NCBI GenBank assembly: GCA_964397315.1
Contig: CAYNHV010000005.1
Coordinates: 49,466-69,465, forward strand
Direction of reading: 5' to 3'
Length of the DNA: 20,000 bases
DNA from: an uncultured Methanosarcinales archaeon
GTDB taxonomy: Archaea > Nanobdellota > Nanobdellia > Woesearchaeales > UBA12501
The notes below the pieces were generated by a model. That model had not been told where the DNA came from. It was given only the letters and a program-made list of their open reading frames with translations, and did no database searches. How positions within the stretch are numbered: the first letter of the stretch is position 1; every line of letters starts with the position of its first letter. Below, piece by piece: positions 3,510-20,000 of this stretch. A program made the translations under genes and the position numbers.

Positions 3510-3538
3510 TCCTCCTTCATCATTCCTGGCTTAAGCCT

Positions 3539-3601
3539 TTATTTATCCCTTATTTATCCATTATTTATAATTTTAACGTGGATTTTATAATTTTAACGCG
3601 G
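3539..3601 (-). repeat. Tandem AT-rich repeats upstream of the large surface-protein gene, probably duplicated promoter elements
   Basis: TTTATAATTTTAACGYGG at 3564-3581 and 3584-3601 (20-bp period); TTATTTATCC at 3539-3548 and 3550-3559 (11-bp period). Confidence 0.65.
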
Positions 3602-3623
3602 CTTTGGCAGGATTGGCCTGTGT

Positions 3624-5588: not shown

Positions 5589-5612
5589 CTCAGCATGAAT
5601 TTGGAGATTACA

Positions 5613-5627
5613 TTTATAAATGTTTTT
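5613..5627 (-). promoter_or_regulatory. Archaeal TATA box with A-rich BRE-like flank for the 654-aa gene (leaderless)
   Basis: Minus strand AAAAACA-TTTATAAA; TATA at 5613-5620, 25 nt from ATG 5588. Confidence 0.7.
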
Positions 5628-5663
5628 GTTGGTAAACAGAGGGTAAACAGGGGGATGCAGAGG

Positions 5664-5907
5664 TTAACAAATCCTGATGATTCCTGGAGATGATATGGGC
5701 TTATGATTGTTATTCATGGTGATTCCTGCCATTTGGGAGGTTATGTTCTTATGCTTATAACTCATGGTACTTCCTTTTGGAGAAATGTGTTCCTGCTGAT
5801 TTTTCCTGATACTCCCTTTTGGGAAAGTGTGTTTTTGCTGATTCTTCATAGTGCCTCCCGCCCTCTAGGATATGATATTTTTATGATTATAATTCCTGGT
5901 ACTTCCC
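5664..5907 (-). repeat. Degenerate tandem repeat, about 5 units of 42-48 bp; includes a 61-aa repeat ORF (5664..5849)
   Basis: Minus-strand units begin GG(A/G)AGTA(C/T)C or GGAATCA(C/T)C, followed by AGGA or ATGA. In frame they read KNQQKHTFPKGS, KNQQEHISPKGS, SYKHKNITSQMAGIT, NNNHKPISSPGII. Confidence 0.6.
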
Positions 5908-6153
5908 ACCCTTACTGCACAACCACCTCACAAGTTCGCACCTTCTGAGTCCACACAACTCCCCGCTTCTGCCTCCAATAAGCCCTCCCAATGATATGCT
6001 TAAAGCGCTCTCGGGCTGGTGTTTGTGTGATTAGCATGTGTGAGGGGATGGGGGGCGGGAAAAATCAGGGTGTAAAGCAAACAGGGAGGAGGAGAAATCA
6101 GGAAGATTCATTGTTACTTCCTAATGAAATCCCGAAGGTTTACTATTTTTATA

Positions 6154-6316
6154 TGTCAGAAATATACCACTGATTTATTTAACCAGTGGACAAAGTCCAC
6201 AAAGGCATATCCGCAGAGGGTATATTTCTGAGCATGCTCAAAAACCACAGGTCAATAAAGAATGAGAATGAAGCTTTCGCTTCATGCCACCGGTCTCTGA
6301 CCGGTGGTTTTTGACA
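6154..6316. mobile_element. Non-coding bipartite palindromic element (MITE/REPIN-like or structured RNA)
   Basis: Ends TGTCA...TGACA; arm 6156-6168 pairs with 6219-6231 (13 bp); central palindrome TGAGCATGCTCA 6229-6240; arm 6238-6254 pairs with 6298-6314 (16/17); internal hairpins 6186-6200, 6268-6285, 6287-6307. The structure is seen directly; mobility is inferred. Confidence 0.5.
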
Positions 6317-6408
6317 AAACAATCAGGGCTGTGGAAAACTCTGGAAAACTTACAATCTCCGCAAGTTTCATATAAACTCAGCGCGGAGATGTCCTGCCCA
6401 GCACCTTC

Positions 6409-7272
6409 TCATGCCTTGACGTGCTTTTTGAAGACAGAGGCTGCGTAGAGCTTCGCCCAGGTGAGGAGGGCTATGAGCAGCACTGAGTTCAGCACGCTGC
6501 TGATGATTGTGGGCAGGAGAAAGGACAGCAGCGAGACCGCCCAGGCAACCATGAAAACTGCCGCAACAAGCAGGAGGGGGAGCCATAAGACATTAAGCTT
6601 CTTCACCCCCTCAACAAAGGCATTCTTTATTGATGAAAAGACCCTCTCTTTTTTCATGAAAGAGTAATATATCAGGTAGGTGAAGTAGAACAGGGCGATG
6701 ACATACAATAATATCATTATAACAGAGTATGCCATGACCAGCTGCGGAATTTTAAGCACGCCTGAGGACACAAAGATAAGGGCTCCTACTGCTATCACTG
6801 GAATTGCCCACACAATGTTAAGGAGGAAGAACCTCAGGAAATCCTTTACAGCCATGCCTTTCTCAACAAGCGTAGTCCATATCATGTATTTTGAGAGCGC
6901 AAAGCCGGCAATAAGAAGTATCACATAGATTACAGCTGCTGCAATCACCAGGTTGATTGCCCTTGAGATTCCGGCATTCATTGCAGATGCCTGCGCAACC
7001 GCGCCTGTGGTCAGAGCAGAGGGGTCCATGTACCTGAGAGGGTCAATTATCTTCTCCAGTGTAAAGCTCATTATAAAGGAGAGCGCAATAGCCAGGATGT
7101 AGAACATGATGTCAAAGGAAGCCACAAGCAGTGCCTTGAGGCTCTTCAACCGGCTGAAGCTATGCAGGAACCTGCTGAACTCTGCTGACGCGTAGGATTT
7201 CTTCTTTCCTGCGCTGCTTCTCTTGCTGCTGCTCTTGCTCTTCTTTGCTGTCTTGCGCTTTTTTGCCGCCAT
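6409..7272 (-). CDS. 287-aa polytopic membrane protein with Lys/Ser-rich basic N-terminal tail
   Basis: About 6-7 hydrophobic segments; N-terminus MAAKKRKTAKKSKSSSKRSS; Shine-Dalgarno AAGGAGGT just upstream (7280-7287). Confidence 0.85.
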   Translation of the reverse strand: MAAKKRKTAKKSKSSSKRSSAGKKKSYASAEFSRFLHSFSRLKSLKALLVASFDIMFYILAIALSFIMSFTLEKIIDPLRYMDPSALTTGAVAQASAMNAGISRAINLVIAAAVIYVILLIAGFALSKYMIWTTLVEKGMAVKDFLRFFLLNIVWAIPVIAVGALIFVSSGVLKIPQLVMAYSVIMILLYVIALFYFTYLIYYSFMKKERVFSSIKNAFVEGVKKLNVLWLPLLLVAAVFMVAWAVSLLSFLLPTIISSVLNSVLLIALLTWAKLYAASVFKKHVKA

Positions 7273-7310
7273 TTAAGATACCTCCTTCTGTTCATCAGAC
7301 ATCCGATTTA

Positions 7311-8585
7311 TCATGCCATGCCTGCATTGCCGCCCTCAGGCATGTCATCCCCAGCAGGGGGCTGGGGCCTGTTCTCTGGCTCAGGCTCACTATCGTCATC
7401 TCCGCCTCCAAGGCCAAGGTTCAGGTCAAAGCCTAAATCAAGGCCGCCGAATCCGCCAGAGCCGGGGCAGTATGAGCATGAGCCCATGTCAGGCGGAGCC
7501 CCTGCAACCTTAACAGACCTGCACGACCTGTCTCCACCAAGCACCAGCTCAGCCTCATTGTTGAAATTAGTCCCGTGGAACTCAAGGCAGACCCTGCTCA
7601 GGGGCTCGTTCATTGGTATGACAAGGGCTGAGCTTCCTGTAAGAGTGTAGGGGGCTGTGTCACATGCTATGTCCACCAGGTCTGGCTCGCCATCCAAGTT
7701 TATATCAGCCCTTTTCTTAGCCCCGGAATGCCTAAGGATGCCCACGATGTAAAATTTTATATGGTCATTGCAGTCGCTTTCTCCTGAATGCTCTGTAAGG
7801 CCTGAAGAGCTTACAAACACCTCAATCCTGTGCCAGTACTCCTCAACCATCTGGCTTGGATTATCCTCTGATGGGTGCACTATTCTCTGCACTTCCCCAG
7901 TTATCCACGCTGAGGGAGCCATCTGGCCCGGAAGAACCACCACACCCTCCTCAGCTGCCATGCTATCATAATCGGTGGAGTACCTGCATATGCTCTGCTC
8001 CCAGTTCCCTGACACGACCTGCCCGAACTCTGTGGATATGAAATCGCTCACCCCAAGGAAGTCTCCCATAACGCTGTCATCACTCCACCATTCATTCTCA
8101 ATTCCAAGCTGTACAAATCCCCCTGCTATTATCATGGCATCCCTGAATGACATATCAACAGGCTGAGTGAATCGCTGAAGGAAACCGCGGTTCTGGTTCA
8201 GCGCATACTCCACTTCATCATTATATAGGCCAGCGTCTTCTATATCGTCTGTTGTCATGGGTTCACGTCCATCTTCATCACAACCATGACCACTACATCT
8301 ATACATGTTATCATCATCATCAACATAATAGAAATTATAATCGGCGGGATCATTACTACCCTCTGGTCCGATTTCAATCATTTGTCCTCCTTCATCATCA
8401 GGCGTGGTAATAACATTTAATGTTTCCCCCTCAGTTTCTCCCTCCTGTGGCTTACCCTTCATCTGTTCCATTCCAGGTTCAACTCCATCATCCCCAACAG
8501 CAGCATATGCCATGCTCAAGAGCATCACCACTACTGCAATCAACGCAAGGCTTCTCTTAATGGTTTTGCTGTTTCCTTTTCTCAT
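7311..8585 (-). CDS. 424-aa secreted/surface acidic, Cys-containing hypothetical protein
   Basis: Sec-type signal MRKGNSKTIKRSLALIAVVVMLLSMAYA; Asp/Glu-rich; Gly/Pro-rich C-terminal tail; starts 12 nt after the stop of the 1092-aa gene. Confidence 0.82.
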   Translation of the reverse strand: MRKGNSKTIKRSLALIAVVVMLLSMAYAAVGDDGVEPGMEQMKGKPQEGETEGETLNVITTPDDEGGQMIEIGPEGSNDPADYNFYYVDDDDNMYRCSGHGCDEDGREPMTTDDIEDAGLYNDEVEYALNQNRGFLQRFTQPVDMSFRDAMIIAGGFVQLGIENEWWSDDSVMGDFLGVSDFISTEFGQVVSGNWEQSICRYSTDYDSMAAEEGVVVLPGQMAPSAWITGEVQRIVHPSEDNPSQMVEEYWHRIEVFVSSSGLTEHSGESDCNDHIKFYIVGILRHSGAKKRADINLDGEPDLVDIACDTAPYTLTGSSALVIPMNEPLSRVCLEFHGTNFNNEAELVLGGDRSCRSVKVAGAPPDMGSCSYCPGSGGFGGLDLGFDLNLGLGGGDDDSEPEPENRPQPPAGDDMPEGGNAGMA

Positions 8586-8597
8586 TTTGCTGCCTTT

Positions 8598-11500
8598 CTA
8601 CTCGTCACACTCAGGAGTCTCCATGTCCAGCGCCTGCGTGCACACTCCGCTCTGCAAGTCAAGAAGATCCTCATTCTCGCTTATCTGCTCAAAAGTGGCC
8701 ACAAGCGACATCACCTTGGGTGCAATCTTCAGGACTCTACATGTAGCATCTATATAAGGATGCGTCACTGCGCAGAACCACACCAGCCCCATAGCCAGAA
8801 GAAAAGCCATGGGATTCATCAGGATCTGAATGATTGCCTGTAATGCCTGCCTCACAAGATTTGCAAAAGGAATGAGCTGGAATATCTCTCCCCAGATGAA
8901 TATGCACCACTGGTAATCCCTGAGAGTGGTGCACATTGAAGGGGGAACTCCTGCAGGAACATACGCTTTCAGGCAGAGCAGGTACTGGCACTCTATCTCC
9001 ATCATCTTGTTCATGTTTATTATTATGCCAGGAATGCATACATACAGGATGCTTAATACTATGCTGTCCCTGGGATTGCCCCATAAGGGGCCTGTTGCGC
9101 TGTCCATGCTTGTTTCTGAAAGGCCTGCTGCCTCACCCAGGCCGGGGTGGCTTGCACTAAACTCCCCCAGTCCTGCTTCTGTGCTGCTGAACACACCGTC
9201 ACTGAGCCTGTCGAATGTATTGCCCACGCCCACTCCGCACCATGCGTCCACTGCTGCATTACCATCACCACCACTATCACCATCACCACCATCGCATAAC
9301 ACGGTCTTGCACGCTATGAAGTCGCAGAATGTGTTGAATGCTGTGAATGTTGAAGTGTCAGTAGCTTCTCCTGATGCTGCAAGAATGCTGAAGAACCAGG
9401 CTATCGGAGCCAGAAGGGTGCCTGCAAGCCATGATGTTGCTGCATTAAGCCCTGTGAGGAGCGTGTAAATCTCAAACATTGTCTTCACTGTCTGGCAAAG
9501 CAGCTGCGAAAGCTCCACCAGGTTGTTCAGCACAGTCCACCACTCACTCATCTCAACAAGCCAGCCTTCCTCCACATCCTCAATCTTCTCGCAAATGATG
9601 CTGTGCACCTCGTCATAGGCAAGAGTGCCTATGCTCATGGTGATGTTCTCCCTTTCAGGGTTTGACAGCATGCCATTGTACAGTGTTGTCAAAGTGAGAG
9701 AGCAGTTGAAATTAAGGGGGTCAACATCAATGGCTCCTGTGTAAAGCCCTACCTTGATCCACCTTTCTGTGGAGTTGGGCATGAAGTTCAGCATGTACGT
9801 GTTGCTGATGTCAGCATAATCATCAAAGTGCCAGCCGCAGGTTCTTGGGTCAAAGGACGCCCTGGCAAGCTCAACTCCGGGAACTTTAGGGGCAAGCTCT
9901 ATCTTGAACCAGATGTCATGGCCCACAATCATTGTTGTTGAGGAGTCCACAAAGCTTGGCTGGGAGCCTACAACCGCAGCATCCCAGTAGTCAGGGGTCT
10001 GGTTTCCCCCTCCGGGGTAGATGCGCACTCCAGTGAGGGGAAGCATGAACCACTCGCCAGAGCCCACATTGTATGTCTCTATGAAGAACTCGTCAACCTT
10101 CCTTGTGGGGGCTTTGGTGTTTCCCATTATGTCAGAGATGTTAAGCCACACCTTGAAGTCGCCCTCCTGGACGTTCATGAGCTCCCATGTGCAGTTCCAC
10201 AGCCTGTTGCCTGCGCCGCTTCTCGCGCCTGAATGCCAGCAGTCAGTTGCAGGAAGCCACATTCCGCTTGAGGTCCTGAATTTCGCAAAGACATTAAAGT
10301 CTCCGTCATCGTTCTTCAGCGCAGTGTTATCCTCTATCATCGCCCTCATAAGCATGTCATCCCCGCCCACAAAGAACGGCGCACCTTCCCTTGCTATGTT
10401 TCTTATGCTGACATTAAGAAGAGAGGGCTTTGAGTCATCATAAATCAGGGTTTCTGAGTAGGGGCTGAGCCGGTTTCCTGAATCATCAGAGCCTGTTATG
10501 GACACGCCAGCGTCTCCTGCAAGGCTCACATTGAACACTGTGCAGCGCCACTCCTCGCCCCCCATGCTGGTGCAGTTTGCGCTGTTGTTATAATCATTCT
10601 GCGCCCCTGACACTGATATTATAATGTTGCTTCCTGCAAGGCCGGCACCTGTGTCGTTTATCACTGCGGTGATATTGTTGAAGCCCGGAGCCACGTATCC
10701 TGTGTTGTTGTAGCTGTAATCAGTGAGCACGGCCTCAACCTCAGGAGCTGCTGAATCCTCTCCAAGGGATATCTGCTTTGTTGTTGACACCTTGTTTCCG
10801 CCGTCATCAGTGACAGTCACTTTTACAGAGCCTTCAACCTCTGACCTCATAACCGGAAGGTCTTTCACGCACTTGTATTCTGTTGTTGTCCTGCTTGTGC
10901 AGTCAAGCAGGGAGTCCTGGGAAAGCCCGAACATGGAGAGGTCTGCAACCGCGCTCTTTATGCCGAAGTACTCTGACGCTGTGGCCTCAACAACAAACTT
11001 TGCCCTTGTGCCTGCAGGGCTTATGTAGCTTATGGGCGCTGTTCCGCTCTCGTCATAAACGCCTGCAGCATCAATAACAGGCTGGGTGTCATCCTTTCTT
11101 ATCTCAACACACTTTGAGCCTGCACTTTCCTGGTCCAGCAGGTCATACGCCTTGAGGCATATTGTATGCACGCCGTTGCTCAGGGATGAGAGTGAGAAAT
11201 CATCTATTGTCCCGCTTTTTGAGCAGTCCTCTGAGTTTATGTCATCTGAGTGGAGGGATGTGCCGTCAAGCTTTGTTATCTCAATCCTGCTTATTCCTGA
11301 GCAGTAGTCTGAGGCTGTTGCGCCGAGCCTGTCCTTCACGCTGTATGAGGCAGATAGGCCTGTGCCTGTAGTGTTTCTGGGGCTTATGTCAAAGCTCTCA
11401 AGCAGGGGCCCGAATCCGTCAACAAGAATGTAAGAGCTTGCCCTGCAGTTCTGGTCGCTGCAGGATGAGCAGTCATTGGAGCAGCAGTTTCCTCCTCCTC

Positions 11501-11876
11501 CGAGGCAGACATCAAGATTGCGCTTTCCAGGAAATGGTGATGCTGTGAGGGAGTAAGAGCATGTGTAAGGAGGCCCGCCTCCTGGCTGGCCTGTGCAGCT
11601 GGTGAAGCTCCAGAACTCATAACTGCCGGGGTATGAGAGATGGAGCGCGTCTGCCAAAGCTGATGCCTCAACATGCTCGCCCGGAGTTACCTGCGCCTCA
11701 ACCTGAACTGTGTCGCCTGCCTTTGCAACATTCTCTATGCCGTCACTCCCTTTTATGCTCTCTATATTGACATTGCCTGAGACAGCGTAAACATTTGAGA
11801 CATAGAAGGGTATGGTTATGACTAGGAAGCTCATGAAGATTGCAAGTGTCTTCAGTATCTCCGGCTTGATTTTCAT
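8598..11876 (-). CDS. 1092-aa surface protein: signal/TM segment, Ig-like repeats, Cys-rich helical C-terminal domain with hydrophobic segments; paralog of <1..3509
   Basis: Hydrophobic N-terminus; Ig-type linkers DGFGP, DDTQP, DSAAP, DDSKP and DDGGN, DDSGN, DIMGN; C-terminal FCDFIAC and NPRDSIVLSILYVCIPGI; hydrophobic AIIQILMNPMAFLLAMGLVWFC. Confidence 0.88.
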   Translation of the reverse strand: MKIKPEILKTLAIFMSFLVITIPFYVSNVYAVSGNVNIESIKGSDGIENVAKAGDTVQVEAQVTPGEHVEASALADALHLSYPGSYEFWSFTSCTGQPGGGPPYTCSYSLTASPFPGKRNLDVCLGGGGNCCSNDCSSCSDQNCRASSYILVDGFGPLLESFDISPRNTTGTGLSASYSVKDRLGATASDYCSGISRIEITKLDGTSLHSDDINSEDCSKSGTIDDFSLSSLSNGVHTICLKAYDLLDQESAGSKCVEIRKDDTQPVIDAAGVYDESGTAPISYISPAGTRAKFVVEATASEYFGIKSAVADLSMFGLSQDSLLDCTSRTTTEYKCVKDLPVMRSEVEGSVKVTVTDDGGNKVSTTKQISLGEDSAAPEVEAVLTDYSYNNTGYVAPGFNNITAVINDTGAGLAGSNIIISVSGAQNDYNNSANCTSMGGEEWRCTVFNVSLAGDAGVSITGSDDSGNRLSPYSETLIYDDSKPSLLNVSIRNIAREGAPFFVGGDDMLMRAMIEDNTALKNDDGDFNVFAKFRTSSGMWLPATDCWHSGARSGAGNRLWNCTWELMNVQEGDFKVWLNISDIMGNTKAPTRKVDEFFIETYNVGSGEWFMLPLTGVRIYPGGGNQTPDYWDAAVVGSQPSFVDSSTTMIVGHDIWFKIELAPKVPGVELARASFDPRTCGWHFDDYADISNTYMLNFMPNSTERWIKVGLYTGAIDVDPLNFNCSLTLTTLYNGMLSNPERENITMSIGTLAYDEVHSIICEKIEDVEEGWLVEMSEWWTVLNNLVELSQLLCQTVKTMFEIYTLLTGLNAATSWLAGTLLAPIAWFFSILAASGEATDTSTFTAFNTFCDFIACKTVLCDGGDGDSGGDGNAAVDAWCGVGVGNTFDRLSDGVFSSTEAGLGEFSASHPGLGEAAGLSETSMDSATGPLWGNPRDSIVLSILYVCIPGIIINMNKMMEIECQYLLCLKAYVPAGVPPSMCTTLRDYQWCIFIWGEIFQLIPFANLVRQALQAIIQILMNPMAFLLAMGLVWFCAVTHPYIDATCRVLKIAPKVMSLVATFEQISENEDLLDLQSGVCTQALDMETPECDE

Positions 11877-11932
11877 TGTTCTTCCCTGCTTTTTCCTTAA
11901 TGAATTAACATGAATCTTTAAATTTTATTGGT

Positions 11933-14131
11933 TCATCCTGAGCTGACAAACCTGGGCTGGAGCAGCTCCGCGTTTGCAGGGGCTATTTTTGAGTTAATCT
12001 GCGTCAGCCCCTGAAGGTCGCTGTGCTTCCTGTCCCCCTGGGGAACACCCCTGATGTTGAAGTTGAGGGCTGTGAGCTCAAGGTCAGTGTCATTAACATT
12101 CACGTACAGCTCATTGCCTATCACAACATTCAGCTTGTATTCTCCCTCAAAAAGGGGGCTGTTGTATGAGAGGTTTATTGGATCTATTGTCTCGCACTCC
12201 TCATCATCAGGAGGGCACACAGTTGTGCACTTGCATATCTCATCCTCTGGTATTATCACTGTGGTGTTATCCCTCAGGAGAATGACCTGCAGGGAATAGT
12301 TGCCTGGTATGAGCCTCATCCTTCCCTTGTGCGTCCTGTTTATGTCTCCCCCTCCCATGACCTCGTCATCAAACTGGCTTTCCTTCTTTCTCTGCATCAC
12401 CACGCCCGCGTGCTCCTTGCTGTCAGGCCTTCTTCTTCCAGGAGTGAGCACCCACTCATACTGTGGAATATAGTTTTCATATGTCAGCTCTTTATCAATG
12501 TCCATGATCTTGATGGTCACGTTCTTGACAACATACCTGGGCATTCTTATTATCCCAATGTCTTTTGGCTCTTCTGATGCCATGAAATATGGCTTGTGGC
12601 CTGTTGCATAATCCATGTGCTTCAGCACAACCGAGCCTAGAGCTCCTGTAGGGAACTTGCCTTCAAAGTTGCCCTCCTCGTCTGTCTCTCCTATGACGCA
12701 GGAGGTGGTTCCAGAGCTGAACATCACAACAGCGTCCTTGACAGGCTGGCCGAGACTGTCTCTCGCCTTTAAGCTGACAGGCGCGCTGTCCCTGTACTTC
12801 TCAAGGCAGAGCTGCTGAGAGGGCTCCCCCCTTGCCACGCTCTTCAGCTGGACAGACTTTGCGGTAAATGGCTGGTTGTTTCTTATGTTGCTTTCTAATG
12901 CAAAGAAGAAGTCATAACCCTCTCCCATGAACGCGCTGGGGTCATGAAGGTTTACCATCACCGGAAATGAAAGGTCATAAGGGGTATCATACTTTTTGAC
13001 AGGGAATATAAGGGACACAAAAGGCACTGTGATGCCGTCCCTTGGCCCGACCATGGCGCTGTCTGTAAGGTAAAGGTATATCGGCCATCCAAAGTAGTTG
13101 AAGTTCACGTCAATGTGGCCTACAAACTCTTCCTGGTCCTGCAGGGGAATCACCATTCCGCTGTAAAGGCCTGTCTTGATGTCCTCTCCCTCAAAGTAGG
13201 GAAGCTCAAACCCTCTTGTCCTTGTGGCCTGAAGGGCATTAACGTATATTGAGAGGATCTCCTTCAGCTTCTTCTCAACATCAGACATAAGCCATCTCTC
13301 TGCTGTGAAGCTGAAGTCAGTTCCTGTGACAGGAGGCAGATCCCTGTCAAGCCCTGAATAGATTGATATGAGGTTGAGGGCGTGAGTCTCAAGCGCGTTG
13401 CCGTCGCTCTCTGTTCTTCTTATCTCGTCTGCAAGGCGGTATATCCTGTCAAGGTCAATTGCGTAATCAGCAGAGAAGAGCGAGATTGTTGATGTTCCTC
13501 CCTCCCATGATGCTTCCAGGGGATATTCAACCTTTATGGACACGTCATTCCTTGCTATTGTTGTCTCTGCCTTTACGCCACTTGTATTCCTTATATTGAT
13601 CCCTTTCTCCCTGAATGATCTCAGGCCTGCTGCCATGCACTTGGGAAGATTAACCTGCACATACCTGTCAATCTGCTCCTCTATTGAGTTCTCGCCGTCA
13701 TCTCTTCTGAGGGGCGGCTGCTGAAGGTCAAAGCTGCACTTGCCCCTGCAGTCATTGGACGAGCTCATGTGCCACCAGTAGGGGATGTGCCATCCTTCTG
13801 ACATCCTCAATGCATCATGCTCTGTGGGGTTTCTTCCTGAATGGTCTATGCTGAATGTGGTATGGGTGTATTTCGTGGATGCTTCAGGGGACAATCCAAT
13901 GTAGCCGCCATGCCTGCCTGCCATCCTTATTGCCTGCTTTCCTGTCTCTTTAAGACATTCCTGAACATAGCTCTTGACAGGCTGAAGCTCAAGAGGAACT
14001 TCCTCGGTGAGTCTCTCAGTCTCATCCTCTTTTGCCTCCCTTAACTGGAGAAAGAGCATGATAACAACAGAGAAGAGGATTATAATGCCTATTATGATAA
14101 AGATTGTGGTCTGTCCCTTTTTTGACTGCAT
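11933..14131 (-). CDS. About 732-aa protein with class III (prepilin-like) signal peptide and C-terminal beta-sandwich region; paralog of 3624..5588
   Basis: Preferred start ATG 14131: MQSKKG|QTTIFIIIGIIILFSVVIMLFL. Motifs PVKSYVQECL, GRHGGYI, IPYW, DPSAFMGEGY; segment VSLKARDSLGQPVKDAVV...TDEEGNF resembles carboxypeptidase-regulatory-like domains. Confidence 0.85.
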   Translation of the reverse strand: MQSKKGQTTIFIIIGIIILFSVVIMLFLQLREAKEDETERLTEEVPLELQPVKSYVQECLKETGKQAIRMAGRHGGYIGLSPEASTKYTHTTFSIDHSGRNPTEHDALRMSEGWHIPYWWHMSSSNDCRGKCSFDLQQPPLRRDDGENSIEEQIDRYVQVNLPKCMAAGLRSFREKGINIRNTSGVKAETTIARNDVSIKVEYPLEASWEGGTSTISLFSADYAIDLDRIYRLADEIRRTESDGNALETHALNLISIYSGLDRDLPPVTGTDFSFTAERWLMSDVEKKLKEILSIYVNALQATRTRGFELPYFEGEDIKTGLYSGMVIPLQDQEEFVGHIDVNFNYFGWPIYLYLTDSAMVGPRDGITVPFVSLIFPVKKYDTPYDLSFPVMVNLHDPSAFMGEGYDFFFALESNIRNNQPFTAKSVQLKSVARGEPSQQLCLEKYRDSAPVSLKARDSLGQPVKDAVVMFSSGTTSCVIGETDEEGNFEGKFPTGALGSVVLKHMDYATGHKPYFMASEEPKDIGIIRMPRYVVKNVTIKIMDIDKELTYENYIPQYEWVLTPGRRRPDSKEHAGVVMQRKKESQFDDEVMGGGDINRTHKGRMRLIPGNYSLQVILLRDNTTVIIPEDEICKCTTVCPPDDEECETIDPINLSYNSPLFEGEYKLNVVIGNELYVNVNDTDLELTALNFNIRGVPQGDRKHSDLQGLTQINSKIAPANAELLQPRFVSSG

Positions 14132-14219
14132 CTTAACCCCTTTTGTGAACAAAACAGGCGTGAAACAAGCGAACCCGCGCGCCTCTGCAACCCTTGTGGG
14201 GCTGATTATTCTATATTTT

Positions 14220-15444: not shown

Positions 15445-17550
15445 TCAGCTGACCTTTCCCTTCTCCAGATCAACCCTCACCTCTGACTTGCCTGCCCTGA
15501 GAGGCTCTCCCTTGTAATACACCCTGCCGTGGCTTATGGTGAGCTTCACCTTGTTGAAGTCGTCAATTCCCACCTCCTTGTCAGGCTGGGGCTCAATTCC
15601 ATTCACAAAAACGCTTGCGCCGGGCTCCTCATCAGACTCAAGAATCCTGACATTCCTTCTGTCATCCCCTGCAAGAAGCATTCCTGCAGAGGTCTCTCCC
15701 TTGAGCTTTGCAGGCCTGAGGTTCTTCACAATGACAATATTTTTCCCCTCAATCTCCTCAGGAGAGTAATGGCCTGCAAGCCCTGCCACAATCTGCCGCT
15801 TCTCAGAGCCAATGTCAACCTGCATTATGAGCAGCTTGTCTGCATCAGGATGCTTCCTGGCCTCAACAACCCTTGCTGTCCTGAGGTCAAGCAGGGCAAG
15901 AGGGTCTTTTACTGCTATGCTCTCAAGCTCATCCCCTATCTTGCTGATCAGTATTTCCGCTTTCCCGAGCTTCCGGCTCTCCAGCTTCTTTCCCAGGCAG
16001 TCCCAGCTCTGCTCTTCCAGGTTAAGCTGCTTTTCAATGCCTGCTGAAAATCTTGGAAGCACCGGCTTTATGAGTATTGAGATTTCCTTCACAAGGTTGA
16101 CGCAGAATGAAACAACCTCTTTCATTCTCTTCCATTCATCGCTGTCTTTTTCTTTTTTTGCAAGCTCCCACGGCTTGTTGTCCTGGAAGTACTTGTTGCC
16201 TACTGAGCCTGCCTCAAGGATAAGGCTCACTGCCCTCCTGAAATTGTATGACCTGTACGCTTCTTTTATCTCATCATACTTCTGCCTGAGCTTCTCCTCC
16301 AGCTCAGGCTCGCTGAATGCTTCTGTCTCTGAGCCGAGATTTTTCTCTGCAAAGCTCACCACCCTGTAGGTGAAGTTTCCCAGGTCAGCCACAAGCTTGT
16401 TGTTAATGCTGCTCCTGAAATCCTCAAAGTCAAGGTCAATGTCGCCCTCTGACTTTGTGAGGTTTGACGCGTAATAGAACCTCAGGTATTCGGGATCAAG
16501 AGCCTTCAGGTAATCCCTTGCAGTGAAGAAAGTTCCCCTTGACTTGGACATCTTCTCCTTGTTTACGGTGAGGAAACCGTGCACCACAATGTCCTCAGGA
16601 AGAGAGAAGCCTGAGTTCATGAGCATGGCCGGCCAGAAAAGAAAGTGGAAGTAGATTATGTCCTTGCCTATGAAATGGATTATCCTGCCGTGCTTCCAGT
16701 AATCCTCAACCTTCTCCTTTCCCTTCATTATGTTCCTGCAGTAATTCTCTGTTGAGGAGATATACCCTACAGGCGCGTCAAGCCACACGTAATAATAGAG
16801 GTCCTTCTCTCCAGGGATGTTGAAGCCGAAGTAAGGGCCGTCCCTTGTTATGTCCCAGTCCCGCAAACCTTCTTTTATCCAGCCCAGCACGTAGTTCCTC
16901 ACCTCAGGCTGGAGGTTCCTGTTGCTGTTAAGCCATTCCCTGAGGTCATCAGCGCATGAGCTGAGCCTGAAGAAGTAATGCTCTGAGGATCTTGTTGTCG
17001 GGGGCGAGCCGCATATGGCGCAGTAAGGCTCTGCAAGGTCTGTTGTGGAGTATGTTGCATTGCACTTCTCGCACACGTCTCCATACTGGTCGTCAGCCCC
17101 GCACTTTGGGCATTTTCCCTTCACATACCTGTCAGGAAGGAACCTGTTGCATTTGGGACAGTAGATGAGCTCAACCTTTTTCTTGTATATGAGCCCGTTC
17201 TCCCTGAGCCTTGTGAAGATGAGGTCGCTGAATCTCTTGTTCTCCTCTGAGTTTGTTGAGTGGTAGCTGTCAAAGCTTATGAGAAACTCATTGAAGTCCT
17301 TAAGATGCTCCTCATGCATCTGGTTTATGAGATAAGTGGGGGGGATGCCCTTTTTCATGGCAGCAATCTCAATAGGAGTTCCGTGGGTGTCGTCAGCGCA
17401 GCAGTAGATGGCCTTCTCTCTGGTGAGCCTGAGGAACCTCACAAAGATGTCTGTCTGGATGTACTCCACCATGTGGCCTATGTGGAGCGGGCCGTTGGCG
17501 TAAGGCAGAGCTGATGTCACAACAGTCTTCTTTTGTGTTTTCTTCTGCAT
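15445..17550 (-). CDS. metG: Methionyl-tRNA synthetase with C-terminal tRNA-binding OB (Trbp111/EMAP-like) domain
   Basis: TSALPYANGPLHIGH, zinc knuckles CPKC/CPKC/CEKC/CAIC, YYVWLDAPVGY, KMSKS, and HPDADKL...RQIVAGL...NLRPAKLKG. Start 17550 preferred because TTTATATA lies at 17574-17581. Confidence 0.97.
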   Translation of the reverse strand: MQKKTQKKTVVTSALPYANGPLHIGHMVEYIQTDIFVRFLRLTREKAIYCCADDTHGTPIEIAAMKKGIPPTYLINQMHEEHLKDFNEFLISFDSYHSTNSEENKRFSDLIFTRLRENGLIYKKKVELIYCPKCNRFLPDRYVKGKCPKCGADDQYGDVCEKCNATYSTTDLAEPYCAICGSPPTTRSSEHYFFRLSSCADDLREWLNSNRNLQPEVRNYVLGWIKEGLRDWDITRDGPYFGFNIPGEKDLYYYVWLDAPVGYISSTENYCRNIMKGKEKVEDYWKHGRIIHFIGKDIIYFHFLFWPAMLMNSGFSLPEDIVVHGFLTVNKEKMSKSRGTFFTARDYLKALDPEYLRFYYASNLTKSEGDIDLDFEDFRSSINNKLVADLGNFTYRVVSFAEKNLGSETEAFSEPELEEKLRQKYDEIKEAYRSYNFRRAVSLILEAGSVGNKYFQDNKPWELAKKEKDSDEWKRMKEVVSFCVNLVKEISILIKPVLPRFSAGIEKQLNLEEQSWDCLGKKLESRKLGKAEILISKIGDELESIAVKDPLALLDLRTARVVEARKHPDADKLLIMQVDIGSEKRQIVAGLAGHYSPEEIEGKNIVIVKNLRPAKLKGETSAGMLLAGDDRRNVRILESDEEPGASVFVNGIEPQPDKEVGIDDFNKVKLTISHGRVYYKGEPLRAGKSEVRVDLEKGKVS

Positions 17551-17573
17551 AAGGCCCTCAGAGAGGGGTTTTA

Positions 17574-17581
17574 TATATAAA
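17574..17581 (-). promoter_or_regulatory. TATA box of metG (leaderless)
   Basis: TTTATATA on the minus strand, 24 nt from ATG 17550. Confidence 0.7.
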
Positions 17582-17717
17582 GGTTGCCTTATAAATCCTG
17601 CAGGGGTCATAAGGGCTTAGAATGCCTTAGTGTGTGGCAGTGAACGCCTTTCTTCCTCAATCCCGGGAAACAGGCCAACCCCAAAATTTATATAATCAAT
17701 CATACAAGTTTATGATA

Positions 17718-18053
17718 ATGAGACACGGAGAACACCATCAACACCAAAGAAAAAGGATTCATGTTAAGCATGAAAAATATCCACATCCAGATAAAAGGAT
17801 CAAATTGTTGGATCGCGTTTGCATGGTTTTCTCTGTTGTCATGCCCGCAACAACAATTCCTCAAATCTATAAGACCTATGTCTTTCAAGATGCAACAGGT
17901 GTTTCGTTATGGATGTGGGCATTATATTGTTTTGCAGTAGTCCCATGGTTAATTTATGGAATCGTCCATAAGGCAAAACCCATAATAGTTCTTAATATTC
18001 TTTGGTTGATTGTCCAAGTGATTATGATTGTTGGTGTTCTCCTTTATGGTTGA
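17718..18053 (+). CDS. SemiSWEET/PQ-loop family 3-TM transporter with His-rich N-terminus (111 aa)
   Basis: TTIPQIYKTY...DATGVSLWMW...WLIYGIVHKAKPIIVLN; TTTATATA at 17687-17694 supports ATG 17718 (alternative 17712). Confidence 0.85.
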   Translation: MRHGEHHQHQRKRIHVKHEKYPHPDKRIKLLDRVCMVFSVVMPATTIPQIYKTYVFQDATGVSLWMWALYCFAVVPWLIYGIVHKAKPIIVLNILWLIVQVIMIVGVLLYG

Positions 18054-18069
18054 ATGGGTTTTGGCTCAA

Positions 18070-18141
18070 CTCTGAAATCTTCCTTCGGAATGTCGCACTA
18101 AATTTCCGCCCTTCGGGAAATATAACCTCGTTATGCACAAT
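18070..18141 (+). other. Putative cassette recombination site 1 (hairpin spacer plus core)
   Basis: Hairpins TTCC-TTC-GGAA and CCC-TTC-GGG, then core TATAAC-CTC-GTTATGCACAAT at 18121-18141. Confidence 0.65.
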
Positions 18142-18156
18142 TGAGTTTTTGGCGCT

Positions 18157-18675
18157 TTAGTTCTTTTCAACTATCTTGATAGCCTTACAGTTATACTTAT
18201 CAAAAAGAATTCTTGTTTTAGATGTTCTTTCAGCACATAAAGCAGTTATCCCAATAACTTTTCCACCTTGCTTTTCAATTAACTTAATAGCAGCTTTAAT
18301 TTGTGATCCTGTCTCAATCCACTCATCTACAATTAAAACTTTATCTCCTTTCTTAATTGAATCTTTATTCATCTCAAAGGTTTTCTTTTTATTAGTATAA
18401 TCTACAACTGCTGTCCTAATAACCGTTCCTCTCACGCCCGGAAGTTTATCTCCTTTCCTTATAGGAACAAAACCTTTTTTTAATTTATGAGCCATAGCCC
18501 CGCCAATTATAAATCCTAAAGCATCAATTCCTACAATTACATTGAAATTCTTGAAAGGTTTAATTAAATCATTTATAAGATTAGAGAAAACTTTTGGATT
18601 CTGAAATATAGGTGTAACGTCACATCTCAGCTTTGTTCTCTTATTAACATGTTTATCATAATATTCATACTTCAT
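18157..18675 (-). CDS. apt: Adenine phosphoribosyltransferase-like type I PRTase
   Basis: DVTPIFQNP, IVGIDALGFIIG, FVPIRKGDKLPG and PRPP-binding loop VLIVDEWIETG; TATA box at 18698-18705. Confidence 0.85.
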   Translation of the reverse strand: MKYEYYDKHVNKRTKLRCDVTPIFQNPKVFSNLINDLIKPFKNFNVIVGIDALGFIIGGAMAHKLKKGFVPIRKGDKLPGVRGTVIRTAVVDYTNKKKTFEMNKDSIKKGDKVLIVDEWIETGSQIKAAIKLIEKQGGKVIGITALCAERTSKTRILFDKYNCKAIKIVEKN

Positions 18676-18732
18676 AGAGCAAACAAGAATTCTTTACTAT
18701 ATAAATGTTCTTAGAACACGCCAAAAACTCAA

Positions 18733-18798
18733 CTCATTCGAGCCTTCGGCTCTCGGCCTTCGCTATCGCTCAGGGTATATAACATCGTTAAGTTCAAT
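18733..18798 (+). other. Putative cassette recombination site 2 (hairpin spacer plus core)
   Basis: CTCATTCGA start, hairpin GAGCC-TTC-GGCTC at 18740-18752, core TATAAC-ATC-GTTAAGTTCAAT at 18778-18798. Confidence 0.65.
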
Positions 18799-18830
18799 AA
18801 TTTTTTGAGCTCTCTAATAGAACTCCCGCC

Positions 18831-19337
18831 CTATTTTTTGGGCGCTTTCTCACCAAGATTTTTCAAATCAAGGATATCAACATCTCTCATCAATTTCCGT
18901 TTGTATGCAATGAGTTCTTTTTTTGGAATTATTGGTAGTTCTAAACCGAAGACTTTCTTAATTGTTGGCTTTGATAAACCATCATCAAGCTTCTGCCACT
19001 TTTTTGTTTTTGAATCAAGAAATTTGCATCCTTTATCGCCACCAATTTCAATTGTAATCCCATCTTTTTCTATTTCCATATAGTAGCATTCCCAATTTTC
19101 TGATTTTGAGAAATGTGGTGGCTCTACAATATAATCCTTTACATCAGGCAGAAGCTTTTGAAAGTCTTCGTTTTTCATAGCTAAATCTATATCTACCAAC
19201 ATTCTTTTTGAACCATATGCATACGCCGCTAATCCTCCGAGAATATTGAATCTTATCTTTTTTCGCTTCAATATTTCAACAATCCATTTTAATGTTTTCT
19301 CGTAGGATTTTTGGTCAATCTCTTTAAATTCTTCCAT
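18831..19337 (-). CDS. Pol-beta superfamily nucleotidyltransferase-like protein (168 aa)
   Basis: ILGGLAAYAYGSKRMLVDIDLA (GG...DxD motif), third acidic strand ITIEIG, C-terminal LIAYKRKLMRDVDILDL; TATA-like TTTAATAA at 19363-19370. Confidence 0.75.
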   Translation of the reverse strand: MEEFKEIDQKSYEKTLKWIVEILKRKKIRFNILGGLAAYAYGSKRMLVDIDLAMKNEDFQKLLPDVKDYIVEPPHFSKSENWECYYMEIEKDGITIEIGGDKGCKFLDSKTKKWQKLDDGLSKPTIKKVFGLELPIIPKKELIAYKRKLMRDVDILDLKNLGEKAPKK

Positions 19338-19427
19338 ATGGTTATTAGATTGAAATTGATGTTTATTAAATTAACGAAAGTGCCCTTTTAATTTCCCACC
19401 CTTAAAAATGGCGAGCTCAAAAAATTA

Positions 19428-19515
19428 CTCCTTCGAAAAATCAAAGATTTTTCTCGGGCACGTTGCACTCTCCTCACTTCGTTCGTCGGCGGATTTAACA
19501 GGGGTTATGCACAAT
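19428..19515 (+). other. Putative cassette recombination site 3 (hairpin spacer plus core)
   Basis: CTCCTTCGA start, hairpin GAAAAATC-AAA-GATTTTTC at 19435-19453, core TTTAAC-AGGG-GTTATGCACAAT at 19494-19515. Confidence 0.65.
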
Positions 19516-19551
19516 TTTCAAAAATCCGTCTAAGAATTAAGGGAAGGGTGC

Positions 19552-19929
19552 TTACTTATCTGCTTTGATCTTCATTTTTTTGAATAATTTAATCAAATCA
19601 CTTCCAGTATAGTTCTTGCTGCTTTCTAACTCATTTAATGCTGGTATATTTTCTATAGCTTTTTCATCTGCTTTGTTTGCAAAACCATAATACTCGTGCT
19701 TTGGGTCAACACACTTACTTTTATGTTCACAGCCATGACAAACTGAATCCAAGTCTTTAACATACTTAAATTCCAAAGATGGATCCTCATGAATTTTCCT
19801 AAAAATATCTCTAGTGTGAAGAATGGCTTTGTCAGAATAAAAATCTTCCGGATGACCAGAATCCTTAAAAGCCTTCTTCCTAGCTGCAATATACTCCTTA
19901 TCAGGCAAATTATAAGATTCGGGCGACAT
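19552..19929 (-). CDS. 125-aa hypothetical protein with DxxCxxC...C motif (resembles DUF1284 putative metal-binding proteins)
   Basis: DSVCHGCEHKSKC followed by ADEKAI; AT-rich codon usage like its neighbours. The family call is tentative. Confidence 0.6.
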   Translation of the reverse strand: MSPESYNLPDKEYIAARKKAFKDSGHPEDFYSDKAILHTRDIFRKIHEDPSLEFKYVKDLDSVCHGCEHKSKCVDPKHEYYGFANKADEKAIENIPALNELESSKNYTGSDLIKLFKKMKIKADK

Positions 19930-20000
19930 CTCATGGTAATAGAATATTTGTATTTGTTTAGCTCTTTAGCACAGGTTTGTGCTTAGCATCCTGTGGAGTT

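Follow-up and report, generated by a model that had tools for sequence, protein, structure and literature searches.

What kind of element places three similar non-coding repeats, all on one strand, between small genes at the end of a contig from a presumed DPANN archaeon? The DPANN archaea considered here are genome-reduced and dependent on gene exchange. The stretch of DNA analysed (the window, 20,000 nt) terminates at a contig end, and within 18069-19515 it holds three non-coding modules of 67-89 nt lying between one-gene units. Judged from the sequence, the three repeats have the character of recombination-type sites between small foreign genes and together appear to make up an integron-like gene-cassette array.

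Modules, cores and cassettes of the window array

Three direct-repeat cores had been marked in an initial annotation of this DNA, and their coordinates (18121-18141, 18778-18798 and 19494-19515) and spacing (657 and 716 bp) were reproduced. Read on the minus strand, all three modules follow the pattern ATTGNNCNTAAC-N3-4-GTTA ... RAGT. Exactly one ORF lies between successive cores, as had been claimed: a phosphoribosyltransferase (PRTase) gene in the first interval and a weakly nucleotidyltransferase-like ORF in the second, with a DUF1284 protein after the third core. Two features were absent from that annotation. Each complete unit is framed by its own inverted repeat (private repeat), perfect over 14-15 nt, which is flush with the module ends and starts from the final T of CAAT (18141-18154 with 18719-18732; 18798-18812 with 19413-19427). 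Furthermore, the GC content falls from ~0.50 to ~0.34 near 17650, and the units are low in GC. The features, with window coordinates and strand, are as follows:

17634..18053, plus strand: gene for a PQ-loop/MtN3-type small membrane protein (Pfam PF04193, PF03083), low GC
18054..18068, no strand: orphan stem half after module 1, ATGGGTTTTGGCTCA on the plus strand; its position equals the private-repeat start elsewhere
18069..18141, minus strand: module 1, 73 nt, ATTGTGCATAAC GAG GTTA ... two GAA-loop hairpins ... CAGAGT
18141..18154, no strand: cassette 1 private repeat, arm at module 1, TTGAGTTTTTGGCG, 14 nt, 100% complementary to 18719-18732
18157..18675, minus strand: cassette 1 cargo, phosphoribosyltransferase of 172 aa (PF00156, E 1e-17)
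18719..18732, no strand: cassette 1 private repeat, arm at module 2, CGCCAAAAACTCAA, pairing with 18141-18154
18732..18798, minus strand: module 2, 67 nt, ATTGAACTTAAC GAT GTTA ... GAGCC-GAA-GGCTC ... ATGAGT
18798..18812, no strand: cassette 2 private repeat, arm at module 2, TAATTTTTTGAGCTC, 15 nt, 100% complementary to 19413-19427
18831..19337, minus strand: cassette 2 cargo, protein of 168 aa, weakly nucleotidyltransferase-like
19413..19427, no strand: cassette 2 private repeat, arm at module 3, pairing with 18798-18812
19427..19515, minus strand: module 3, 89 nt, ATTGTGCATAAC CCCT GTTA ... GAGTGCAACG box ... GAAAAATC-TTT-GATTTTTC ... AGGAGT
19515..19527, no strand: first arm of the expected cassette 3 private repeat, TTTTCAAAAATCC
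19552..19929, minus strand: cassette 3 cargo, DUF1284 protein of 125 aa, the CxxC protein of the initial annotation (PF06935, 25.2 bits, cut-off 25)
19950..20000, no strand: start of a multi-copy repeat and contig break, outside the cassette system

The cargo of cassette 2 matched PF09970 (DUF2204; E 0.0021) and PF10706 (Aminoglyc_resit; E 0.0058), both below the cut-offs. On the metG side, the gene at 17634..18053 has a GC content of 0.39 compared with 0.50 in metG, and may represent the cargo of a final, degenerate cassette lying between metG and module 1. The stem half adjoining it (18054..18068) has no perfect partner in the window, its only counterpart being a 13-nt match of 92% within that same ORF. 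A candidate decayed terminal site at ~17645-17660 was discarded, its signal being too weak to claim.

At the other end, the partner of the cassette 3 repeat is not in the window, the best anchored repeat within the 485 nt available being 4 nt long. The last 50 nt of the window also terminate contig C27, and in run X1 their depth was 36 compared with 7.2, with loose ends at 19950. The contig breaks at this multi-copy repeat, by which the distal end of cassette 3 is hidden. Module 3 is itself multi-copy in the metagenome (contig depth of 34.7-44.6 compared with 7.2 in run X1).

In an independent assembly of run X1, one contig spans 17461-19381 without a difference. Since this contig bridges the GC jump, a chimeric origin of the jump is ruled out. 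At 18798, 19425 and 19461-19463, all of them module borders or positions inside module 3, further contigs enter or depart from the window sequence. Comparison of the window with contigs of three runs from one study revealed no joints and no skipped cassettes; since rare circles cannot show up in contigs, this result has no bearing on excision.

Recurrence of the sites and their private inverted repeats

The initial annotation had considered that its motif might be scattered among core genes and that relatives might carry the same genes beside metG. Neither was found: its regular expression matched three times in the genome of 1,471,575 bases, always within the window array, and similarity to 17611-20000 beside metG was detected in none of five relatives. 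A slightly degenerate motif gave matches in 4 of 41 related genomes and the reversed pattern in 0 of 41, and single matches of a loose motif across the order were near chance level. More than one site per replicon was present in the window (3), on contigs C41 and C53 (at least 2 each) and in locus L008 (6). Within an array, all sites are directly repeated on a single strand, with module lengths of 63-158 nt across loci.

Locus L008 (genome G013) is a complete array, located in a low-GC island that has L7Ae/S28e genes on one side and IleRS on the other. Its cargo comprises MjaI restriction-modification, RHH+ParE and EcoRV restriction-modification cassettes as well as empty cassettes, and it terminates at a gene for a tyrosine recombinase of 275 aa. 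The 3' half of window module 1 is similar to module 7446 of L008, and relatives of module 3 are present in G025 and G016. Comparison of two genomes of one genus (G188 and G092) showed flanks that are 88% identical up to the first module, with no cargo in common, an indirect sign of cassette turnover. Near-identical module bodies with differing left arms were detected in L009 and L018.

The central region of the sites measures 3 or 4 nt (5-6 nt when counted as C-N3-4-G); it reads GAT in 12 of 29 modules, and the remaining modules show 14 other sequences. Both the inner TAA and the inner TTA of the core are fixed, partly through how the sites were found. Beyond TAAC/GTTA, the core arms are complementary at 2.89 of 8 positions compared with 2.54 for shuffled partners (a value at least as high was obtained in 103 of 2000 shuffles), and a strong palindrome was ruled out, the outer arms pairing near chance. 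The TTC-loop hairpin spacers described in the initial annotation are real, but they are not universal: taking all loci together, a perfect stem of at least 4 bp (stem-GAA-stem on the other strand) was found in 10 of 29 modules. A GAA-loop hairpin was accordingly dropped as a universal module feature.

The private inverted repeats were analysed in 40 cores from 18 sequences, counting perfect inverted repeats of at least 10 nt that start at the A of ATTG. Such a repeat was found at 21 of the 40 cores, compared with 0-3 of 40 for anchors displaced by +1 to +25 or -10 to -40. The bases preceding these 21 repeats are GAG (13), AAG (7) or GAA (1). The perfect anchored repeat is absent from the other 19 cores, some of which have an imperfect one, and for others none was found. 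Private repeats are 10-17 nt long, specific to their cassette and without consensus. A literature search found no described counterpart of these stems.

It is highly improbable that the modules belong to an intergenic repeat family (REP/BOX/MITE-like or terminator-insulator) that sits among accessory genes and is unrelated to site-specific recombination. Their mosaic and hairpin-rich build would suit such a family, as would the result of the Rfam search, which returned no family at gathering score or at E up to 1. Yet the copies in an array are co-oriented and stand at unit borders, the strict motif is absent from the remaining genome, and the cargo is foreign in base composition and not the same in congeners. 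In addition, a promoter and terminator scan of the region revealed no excess over shuffles, and arrays finish at a recombinase gene in eight genomes.

An XerA-type recombinase gene and its proximal site

The initial annotation had placed a tyrosine recombinase outside the window. A recombinase gene was indeed found in this genome (G000) on another contig (C53:1481-2341), next to a cassette and a site that belongs to the family of the window sites, but it is XerA-type and not IntI-type; it is the sole XerA-type gene found in G000. The site beside it, ATTGTAACTAAC-ACCT-ATTA, is accompanied by a cassette of 2292 bp with a 14-nt repeat at its borders. C53 and the contig of the window (C5) are separate contigs of one metagenome bin, and nothing links them. 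A search for contig-end overlaps left C5 unjoined to C53 or C41, the ends being common to other contigs via multi-copy repeats. The metG-side end of the window array carries neither a recombinase gene nor a hairpin site, and the array is possibly either an orphan cluster or a rearranged fragment.

In eight genomes (those of loci L008, L014 and L016, and G000 with C53, G011, G018, G021 and G034) the array terminates in a short dif-like site that has a covarying hairpin and lies just upstream of an XerA-type gene. The recombinase gene of L008, L014 and L016 lies directly downstream of the array on the same strand, and in these loci and on C53 this is the strand that reads the modules from ATTG to RAGT. 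Of 30 recombinase loci, 13 had a proximal site upstream of the gene. Alignment of 12 of these sites, from 12 genomes, showed covariation in the flanking hairpin: paired cells make up 88%, compared with 32-44% when the partners are slid, two-sided changes occur in 4 of 9 pairs, and the observed score was reached in 1 of 500 shuffles. At xerA the covarying hairpin is constant, and the adjacent left arm and private repeat are variable. A private repeat of 14-15 nt, preceded by RAG, abuts 5 of the 13 proximal sites; 6 of the other 8 have less than 750 nt upstream. In this count the L008 row is void (site start 10635), and the repeat at the L008 proximal site (CAAATTTTCTC / GAGAAAATTTG) was read by eye.

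The four array-linked recombinases (273-286 aa) share invariant R, K, HxxR, H and Y catalytic residues. NF040815 (XerA) was the best family for all four, with 234.3 and 233.3 bits for two proteins (cut-off 220) and 216.7 and 203.5 bits, just below it, for the others. The closest solved structure is XerA of P. abyssi (4A8E, E 8.7e-42), whereas the best stretch against IntI4 (2A3V) covers residues 212-284 only. The integron integrase profile TIGR02249 scored 175.8-207.8 bits (cut-off 265) and matched all four proteins in two stretches (profile 3-180 in one protein, 239-314 in another). The gap between the two pieces would correspond to the IntI insert, which these recombinases thus appear to lack. 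Some relatives carry two XerA-type genes, and the array enzyme may therefore not be the housekeeping XerA.

An ordinary integron remnant (CALIN), in which canonical attC modules are used by an IntI encoded elsewhere, is a very unlikely explanation of these arrays. It would account for the integron-like layout, an array with one site per cassette and, in G013, toxin-antitoxin and restriction-modification cargo. The module lengths of 63-158 nt are near the attC range of 57-141 nt, and in 8 of 29 modules GTTRRRY is matched by the reverse-complemented left arm, most others being one base off. Moreover, attC clusters in Nanoarchaeota are reported by Ghaly et al. (PMC9668308). However, of 31 far module borders one conforms to GTTRRRY, and the boxes resembling the inverse core (RYYYAAC-like) and the core (GTTRRRY-like) are 3-4 nt apart instead of at opposite site ends, in agreement with the initial annotation, which had called the geometry unlike canonical attC. 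The paired ends are private and non-consensus, with a length of 10-17 nt. The adjacent recombinases fall below the integron-integrase cut-off and match that profile in two pieces, and a search of G000 with a recombinase query found no IntI-type gene, the other matches being three distant, longer integrases.

A passive pile-up of independent Xer-exploiting (IMEX-like) elements at the chromosomal dif, with no dedicated platform and with repeats irrelevant to recombination, is also unlikely. Arrays begin at a dif-like site beside xerA, and G000 encodes the single XerA-type recombinase noted above. A contig search with the alignment of the four recombinases retained 80 loci, mostly bacterial Xer/IntI relatives, none of which (0/80) had motif and repeat. 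A looser look at the 15 archaeal loci among them revealed a dif-like site beside xerA in 2-3 and no arrays of this motif; one Thermoplasmatota and one Methanomicrobia locus carry such an array-free site, as a pile-up would allow. Against it, the units lack replication or transfer genes, several being empty or single-gene, the window array is not at xerA, and a pile-up does not predict the base-exact placement of private repeats at module ends in many genomes. This explanation overlaps with the one that we prefer, the sole difference being whether the design is selected for.

Proposed mechanism and comparison with known systems

We consider it probable that the array belongs to a cassette platform of integron-like kind in which XerA acts on dif-like sites and crosses over at G|TT in the core, and that it is neither a canonical integron nor a CALIN. 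What was observed is the anatomy of the arrays, their recurrence, their link to XerA, their foreign base composition and the differences in content between relatives; XerA as the enzyme, the crossover position, a single-strand exchange and the role of the private stem are inferred. The platform would work like an integron and be built on the archaeal Xer/dif system. On the minus strand, its dif-like core would consist of a left arm ATTGNNCNTAA, a central C-N3-4-G of 5-6 nt and a right arm of TTA with a C-rich stretch, followed by a variable hairpin-forming spacer of 35-120 nt that ends in RAGT. XerA would exchange strands at the border between left arm and central region (G|TT on the plus strand), predicting crossovers between 18130 and 18131 in module 1, 18787 and 18788 in module 2, and 19504 and 19505 in module 3. 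In favour of exchange within the core are the differing left arms on near-identical module bodies (L009, L018) and the constancy of the hairpin at xerA next to a variable left arm and private repeat. With exchange at G|TT, mobile units would run from core centre to core centre, in the window from 18131 to 18787 and from 18788 to 19504. The variable central region of 3-4 nt is awkward for classical double-strand Xer exchange. The short dif-like hairpin site upstream of xerA would serve as entry point of new units, in the role of attI. The cargo of each unit would sit between the arms of its private repeat of 10-17 nt, which may form a stem flanking the whole module in a circular cassette and a clamp on the cargo in the array. 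A crossover at RAG|T (attC-like, at the inner end of the private stem) was ruled out, because each insertion would split the covarying hairpin on the xerA side and because arrays would fall on the wrong side of the first site.

More tentatively, and with some doubt on our side, the housekeeping XerA might double as cassette integrase, with the dif beside xerA as attI. The private stem might then confine recombination to folded or cruciform sites, giving direction and control without the extra domain of IntI-type enzymes, and the platform could have arrived at the integron principle independently or represent a living transition from Xer to integron. If XerA were shown to move the units, the definition of cassette platforms would become wider, low-GC accessory islands that standard integron finders may miss would be explained, and a testable model for the origin of integron integrases from Xer recombinases would be at hand. 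A literature search found no description of this XerA-linked cassette array.

IMEX (CTX, TLC and VGJ of Vibrio, the gonococcal island) are DNA with dif-like sites moved by the host Xer, CTX as a folded single strand with one strand exchange. In Acinetobacter plasmids, pdif modules are small units of genes flanked by Xer sites of alternating orientation. In contrast to the array units, IMEX are phages or islands and not one-gene cassettes; pdif sites alternate, whereas the array sites are direct repeats on one strand, and neither system is known to have private inverted repeats abutting the site.

According to Cortez et al. 2010 (PMC2958812), archaeal dif consists of two imperfect inverted arms of 11 bp with a 6-bp spacer between them, XerA acts in vitro as a single recombinase for which a partner protein is unnecessary, and dif is a single site, which in Thermococcales is not adjacent to xerA. 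The arrays share with archaeal XerA/dif, the system of chromosome-dimer resolution (structures 4A8E, 5HXY), the recombinase family, the inner TAA/TTA and a central region of ~6 nt; they differ in their many tandem sites with long structured extensions, private stems and genes in between.

Archaeal integrons and CALINs are the subject of Ghaly et al. 2022 (PMC9668308). In the DPANN archaea analysed here, integron logic is seemingly run by a plain chromosome-resolution recombinase with dif-like sites. Integrons are the textbook case of gene capture one cassette at a time, and are defined by a special integrase and folded attC sites, in which R'' (RYYYAAC) and R' (GTTRRRY) stand at opposite ends of an imperfect palindrome of 57-141 nt. 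Like integrons, the arrays consist of tandem small accessory units with one recombination site each in a single orientation, have a terminal tyrosine recombinase gene behind a special first site (not at the window array itself) and a G|TT-type core that resembles GTTRRRY and points away from the recombinase gene. Their site ends are likewise conserved in pairing and not in sequence, and their cargo is low-GC and foreign, with toxin-antitoxin and restriction-modification genes in a relative. Unlike in integrons, the array recombinase is XerA-type, apparently without the IntI-specific insert, and its gene lies on the strand reading the modules from ATTG to RAGT (L008, L014, L016, C53). The inverse core and core of the array site are 3-4 nt apart, as in a double-strand simple site; its paired base of 10-17 nt is private to each cassette and without consensus, and its conserved part is the inner one (core and RAGT end). 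Finally, the array cargo is found in either orientation, seemingly with its own promoter.

The cassette array at the contig end

The three-module array is confirmed. Inspection of the sequence bore out the cores at 18121-18141, 18778-18798 and 19494-19515, the intervals between them being 657 and 716 bp, and the regular expression proposed for them in the initial annotation matched three times in the 1.47-Mb source genome (G000), always within this array. Of 41 related genomes, G000 among them, four contained a slightly degenerate form of the motif and none its backward pattern. The claim of a single gene between successive cores also held, with a PRTase gene followed by a weakly nucleotidyltransferase-like ORF and a DUF1284 gene beyond the third core. 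The modules, i.e. the non-coding sites separating the cassettes, are easier to follow on the minus strand, which is the sense strand of these three genes: ATTGNNCNTAAC, 3-4 nt, GTTA, a hairpin-rich spacer and RAGT. Each complete unit is bracketed by a perfect inverted repeat (private repeat), the sequence of which is common to no other unit.

Features of the window array
17634-18053, plus strand, PQ-loop protein gene (PF04193, PF03083)
18069-18141, module 1, 73 nt
18141-18154 with 18719-18732, private repeat of cassette 1, 14 nt, perfect
18157-18675, minus strand, PRTase gene (PF00156, E 1e-17)
18732-18798, module 2, 67 nt
18798-18812 with 19413-19427, private repeat of cassette 2, 15 nt, perfect
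18831-19337, minus strand, weakly nucleotidyltransferase-like gene (below Pfam cut-offs)
19427-19515, module 3, 89 nt
19552-19929, minus strand, DUF1284 gene (PF06935, 25.2 bits)

The GC content is 0.47-0.52 over 15501-17500 (within metG, 15445-17610) and 0.33-0.35 over 18001-20000. This jump is no assembly chimera, since a contig of metagenome run X1, a separate assembly of reads probably from the source study, spans 17461-19381 with zero differences. Shortly before GC falls, an imperfect palindrome, CCTTATAAATCCTGCAGGGGTCATAAGG (17587-17614), overlaps the start codon of metG (17608-17610). Further upstream, the minus strand of 3-14152 carries very large ORFs in a row (1169, 654, 424, 1092 and 739 aa) with Ig-like/fn3 domains or without Pfam match, which have the appearance of surface proteins.

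One arm of each private repeat ends exactly at the A of ATTG and the other starts exactly at the T of RAGT. Only the first arm is present for the third unit in the sequence up to the contig end; its partner would fall past 19950, where a multi-copy repeat starts and the contig breaks, the last base of the window (C5:49466-69465) being the last base of contig C5. The last 50 nt (19950-20000) also end contig C27, and multi-copy repeats occupy ends of C27, C12, C22 and C41; one end of C41 is common to three, the other to six further contigs. The depth at 19903-20000 is 36 versus 7.2 (run X1).

Anchoring the search at the A of ATTG revealed a perfect inverted repeat of at least 10 nt in 21 of 40 cores (at most one mismatch, at least 300 nt of upstream sequence; from 15 loci of 15 published genomes and from the window and the G000 contigs C41 and C53), compared with 0-3 of 40 for anchors shifted by +1 to +25 and 2-3 of 40 for shifts of -10 to -40. 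These 21 repeats are preceded by GAG (13), AAG (7) or GAA (1). Some of the 19 remaining cores have an imperfect repeat (at locus L018 the 13 outer nt are perfect, the inner 7-8 not); others represent an array's first site or border the end of a contig. Composition along the private stems shifts from AT-rich beside the module to GC-rich distally, and genes occur in both orientations relative to the modules. In a circular cassette the stems would flank the whole module and yield a folded or cruciform site; within the array they would clamp the cargo. A second perfect 15-nt inverted repeat is nested in cassette 1 (18204-18218 / 18681-18695; AAAGAATTCTTGTTT / AAACAAGAATTCTTT), with the first arm inside the 3' end of the PRTase ORF and the second immediately before the ORF's start codon; both arms contain the palindrome AAGAATTCTT.

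Recurrence and signs of turnover in related genomes

A loose core pattern matched in 60 of 401 genomes of the same order; single matches mean little, since a backward control pattern also gave many across these genomes (not totalled). Clusters on one contig and strand stand out in G000 (three), G013 (four) and G163, G177 and G188 (two each). The unpublished genomes G147 and G222 were also clustered (four each); they, and single matches in G221, G328, G348 and G386, were counted solely in this tally. Modules measure 63-158 nt (n=29 delimited modules, two probably wrongly delimited), and their central region is GAT in 12 of the 29 and one of 14 other 3- or 4-nt sequences in the remainder. Contig C41 carries at least two further modules (C41:7422, 8037) and an IS66-family transposase gene (5652-6977) directly adjoining them. 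In G016 (contig C16, locus L009), one array carries two copies, 2.3 kb apart, of a block made up of a module, a 21-nt empty hairpin cassette and the left arm that follows (minus strand, 44-204 and 2319-2480).

G188 and G092, of one genus, have a common flank (2059 nt, 88% identity) extending to a point just short of the first G188 module; beyond it similarity is at module level only. Comparison of the metG neighbourhood found metG in five of five relatives, four of which belong to the same genus as the source genome, and tblastx detected no similarity to 17611-20000 beside it in any of the five. In one genome (G004, contig C203), the place of the cassettes, about 100-330 nt past the start of metG, is taken by GC-rich sequence in which many segments are complementary and which resembles a structured RNA gene. 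The depth of module 3 in metagenome contigs is five to six times that of its neighbours. Points at which other contigs depart from the window sequence, or meet it, fall at 18798, 19425 and 19461-19463, positions at module borders or inside module 3, and one variant links cassette 2 to other DNA at 18793. Recombination joints did not appear among these contigs, a kind of data in which they could not have shown up.

The XerA-type recombinase and the first site

A tyrosine recombinase gene lies outside the window, as the initial annotation had proposed, on contig C53 of G000 beside a site and a cassette; its type is corrected to XerA, and the integron-like reading of the array is otherwise supported. 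In G013 (locus L008) a complete array lies within a low-GC island that is flanked by the ribosomal protein genes L7Ae and S28e on one side and by IleRS on the other.

Order of elements in the G013 array
1, truncated module
2, MjaI restriction-modification cassette
3, RHH+ParE cassette
4, EcoRV restriction-modification cassette with HTH gene
5-6, two empty cassettes, 70 and 127 bp
7, 75-bp unit
8, short site
last, tyrosine recombinase gene (275-aa product), same strand as the array

The G163 and G188 arrays (L014, L016) have the same ending. The best homologue in G000 is C53:1481-2341 (286 aa, 37-41% identity to the G013 protein depending on the aligner), in a 50%-GC context. Next to it come the site ATTGTAACTAAC-ACCT-ATTA and, further on, low-GC DNA. 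Directly adjoining this site is a cassette of 2292 bp whose private repeat measures 14 nt, and C53 ends within the next module. With G011, G018, G021 and G034, an array ends at a XerA-type gene in eight genomes (G000, G013, G163 and G188 included). In the window, the array stops at module 1, with the PQ-loop gene and metG adjoining the end that carries xerA in relatives. It may be an orphan cluster, may derive from the C53 array by rearrangement, or may have a last site that has decayed.

NF040815 (XerA) was the best model for all four array-linked recombinases, at 203.5-234.3 bits: two exceeded the cut-off of 220 and two fell slightly short of it. TIGR02249 (integron-integrase) gave 175.8-207.8 bits (cut-off 265) in two stretches (profile 3-180 listed for one protein, 239-314 for another), and the gap between the stretches probably corresponds to a missing IntI insert. 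The closest solved structure was Pyrococcus abyssi XerA (4A8E; E 8.7e-42, one stretch), while the best stretch against IntI4 covered residues 212-284 only. Catalytic residues are invariant. Of 41 relatives, 32 yielded a XerA-type gene, as did 25 of the 27 genomes of good quality; the gene often lies at most 1-2 kb from a contig end, and two copies occur in some genomes. In G000 a single one was found (C53), besides three distant, longer integrases. We read the locus as a site-specific gene-cassette platform with a XerA-type recombinase.

A first site, ATT-N5-TAAC-N4-ATTA, lies upstream of the recombinase gene in 13 of 30 loci, and behind it comes a hairpin, ATTAAGCG ... CGCTTAAT, whose loop contains YAGT. 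In the 12 aligned sites (12 genomes), 88% of cells are paired compared with 32-44% when the partners were slid; 4 of 9 pairs show changes on both sides, and the observed score was reached by 1 of 500 shuffles. A private repeat of 14-15 nt preceded by RAG adjoins 5 of the 13 first sites (G000, G011, G018, G021, G034). Six of the other eight have less than 750 nt of upstream sequence; no such repeat was found at the remaining two despite enough sequence. Dif-like sites adjoin xerA elsewhere. A Thermoplasmatota MAG (L056, 220-290) has a similar site with a hairpin just upstream of the gene, and a Methanomicrobia MAG (L095, 3522-3548) has a near-perfect palindrome of dif type, ATTATATATAAT AAAG TTATATAAAAT, a short way downstream of its XerA-type gene. 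These cases fit a reading of the first site as dif.

Probable exchange site and comparison with known systems

L009 and L018 each hold a pair of modules that, from TAAC on, show 94-99% identity, yet have different private repeats and left arms (ATTAAGCT vs ATTTCGTT; ATTGAGTA vs ATTTCGCC). The xerA-side hairpin covaries as one piece, the preceding left arm and repeat vary between genomes, and arrays extend from the first site on the side of its left arm. Together, these patterns suggest a crossover at the border of left arm and central region, G|TT on the plus strand, which is the exchange position in integrons. The mobile units in the window would be 18131-18787 and 18788-19504 (657 and 717 bp), near the core spacings of 657 and 716 bp because units run from crossover to crossover. 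Since neither the length nor the sequence of the central region is constant, single-strand exchange resolved by replication, as in integrons and CTX phage, appears more likely than full Xer-type exchange. Overall, we regard the outlined mechanism, a cassette platform run by a XerA-type recombinase, as probable.

According to Cortez et al. 2010 (PMC2958812), dif has 11-bp arms around a 6-bp spacer and does not adjoin xerA in Thermococcales; judged from the L095 and L056 sites, adjoining may be common outside them. The portions of full-text literature covered, including PMC8138268 and PMC8371274, contained neither a XerA-linked cassette array nor private-repeat cassettes, and either could exist beyond the searched library. 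Archaeal integrons have canonical attC sites and IntI proteins bearing an extra domain, according to Ghaly et al. 2022 (PMC9668308). The present sites differ from canonical attC, in line with the unlike geometry initially proposed, and the recombinase probably lacks the IntI extra domain; the present system nevertheless appears to work on the integron plan.
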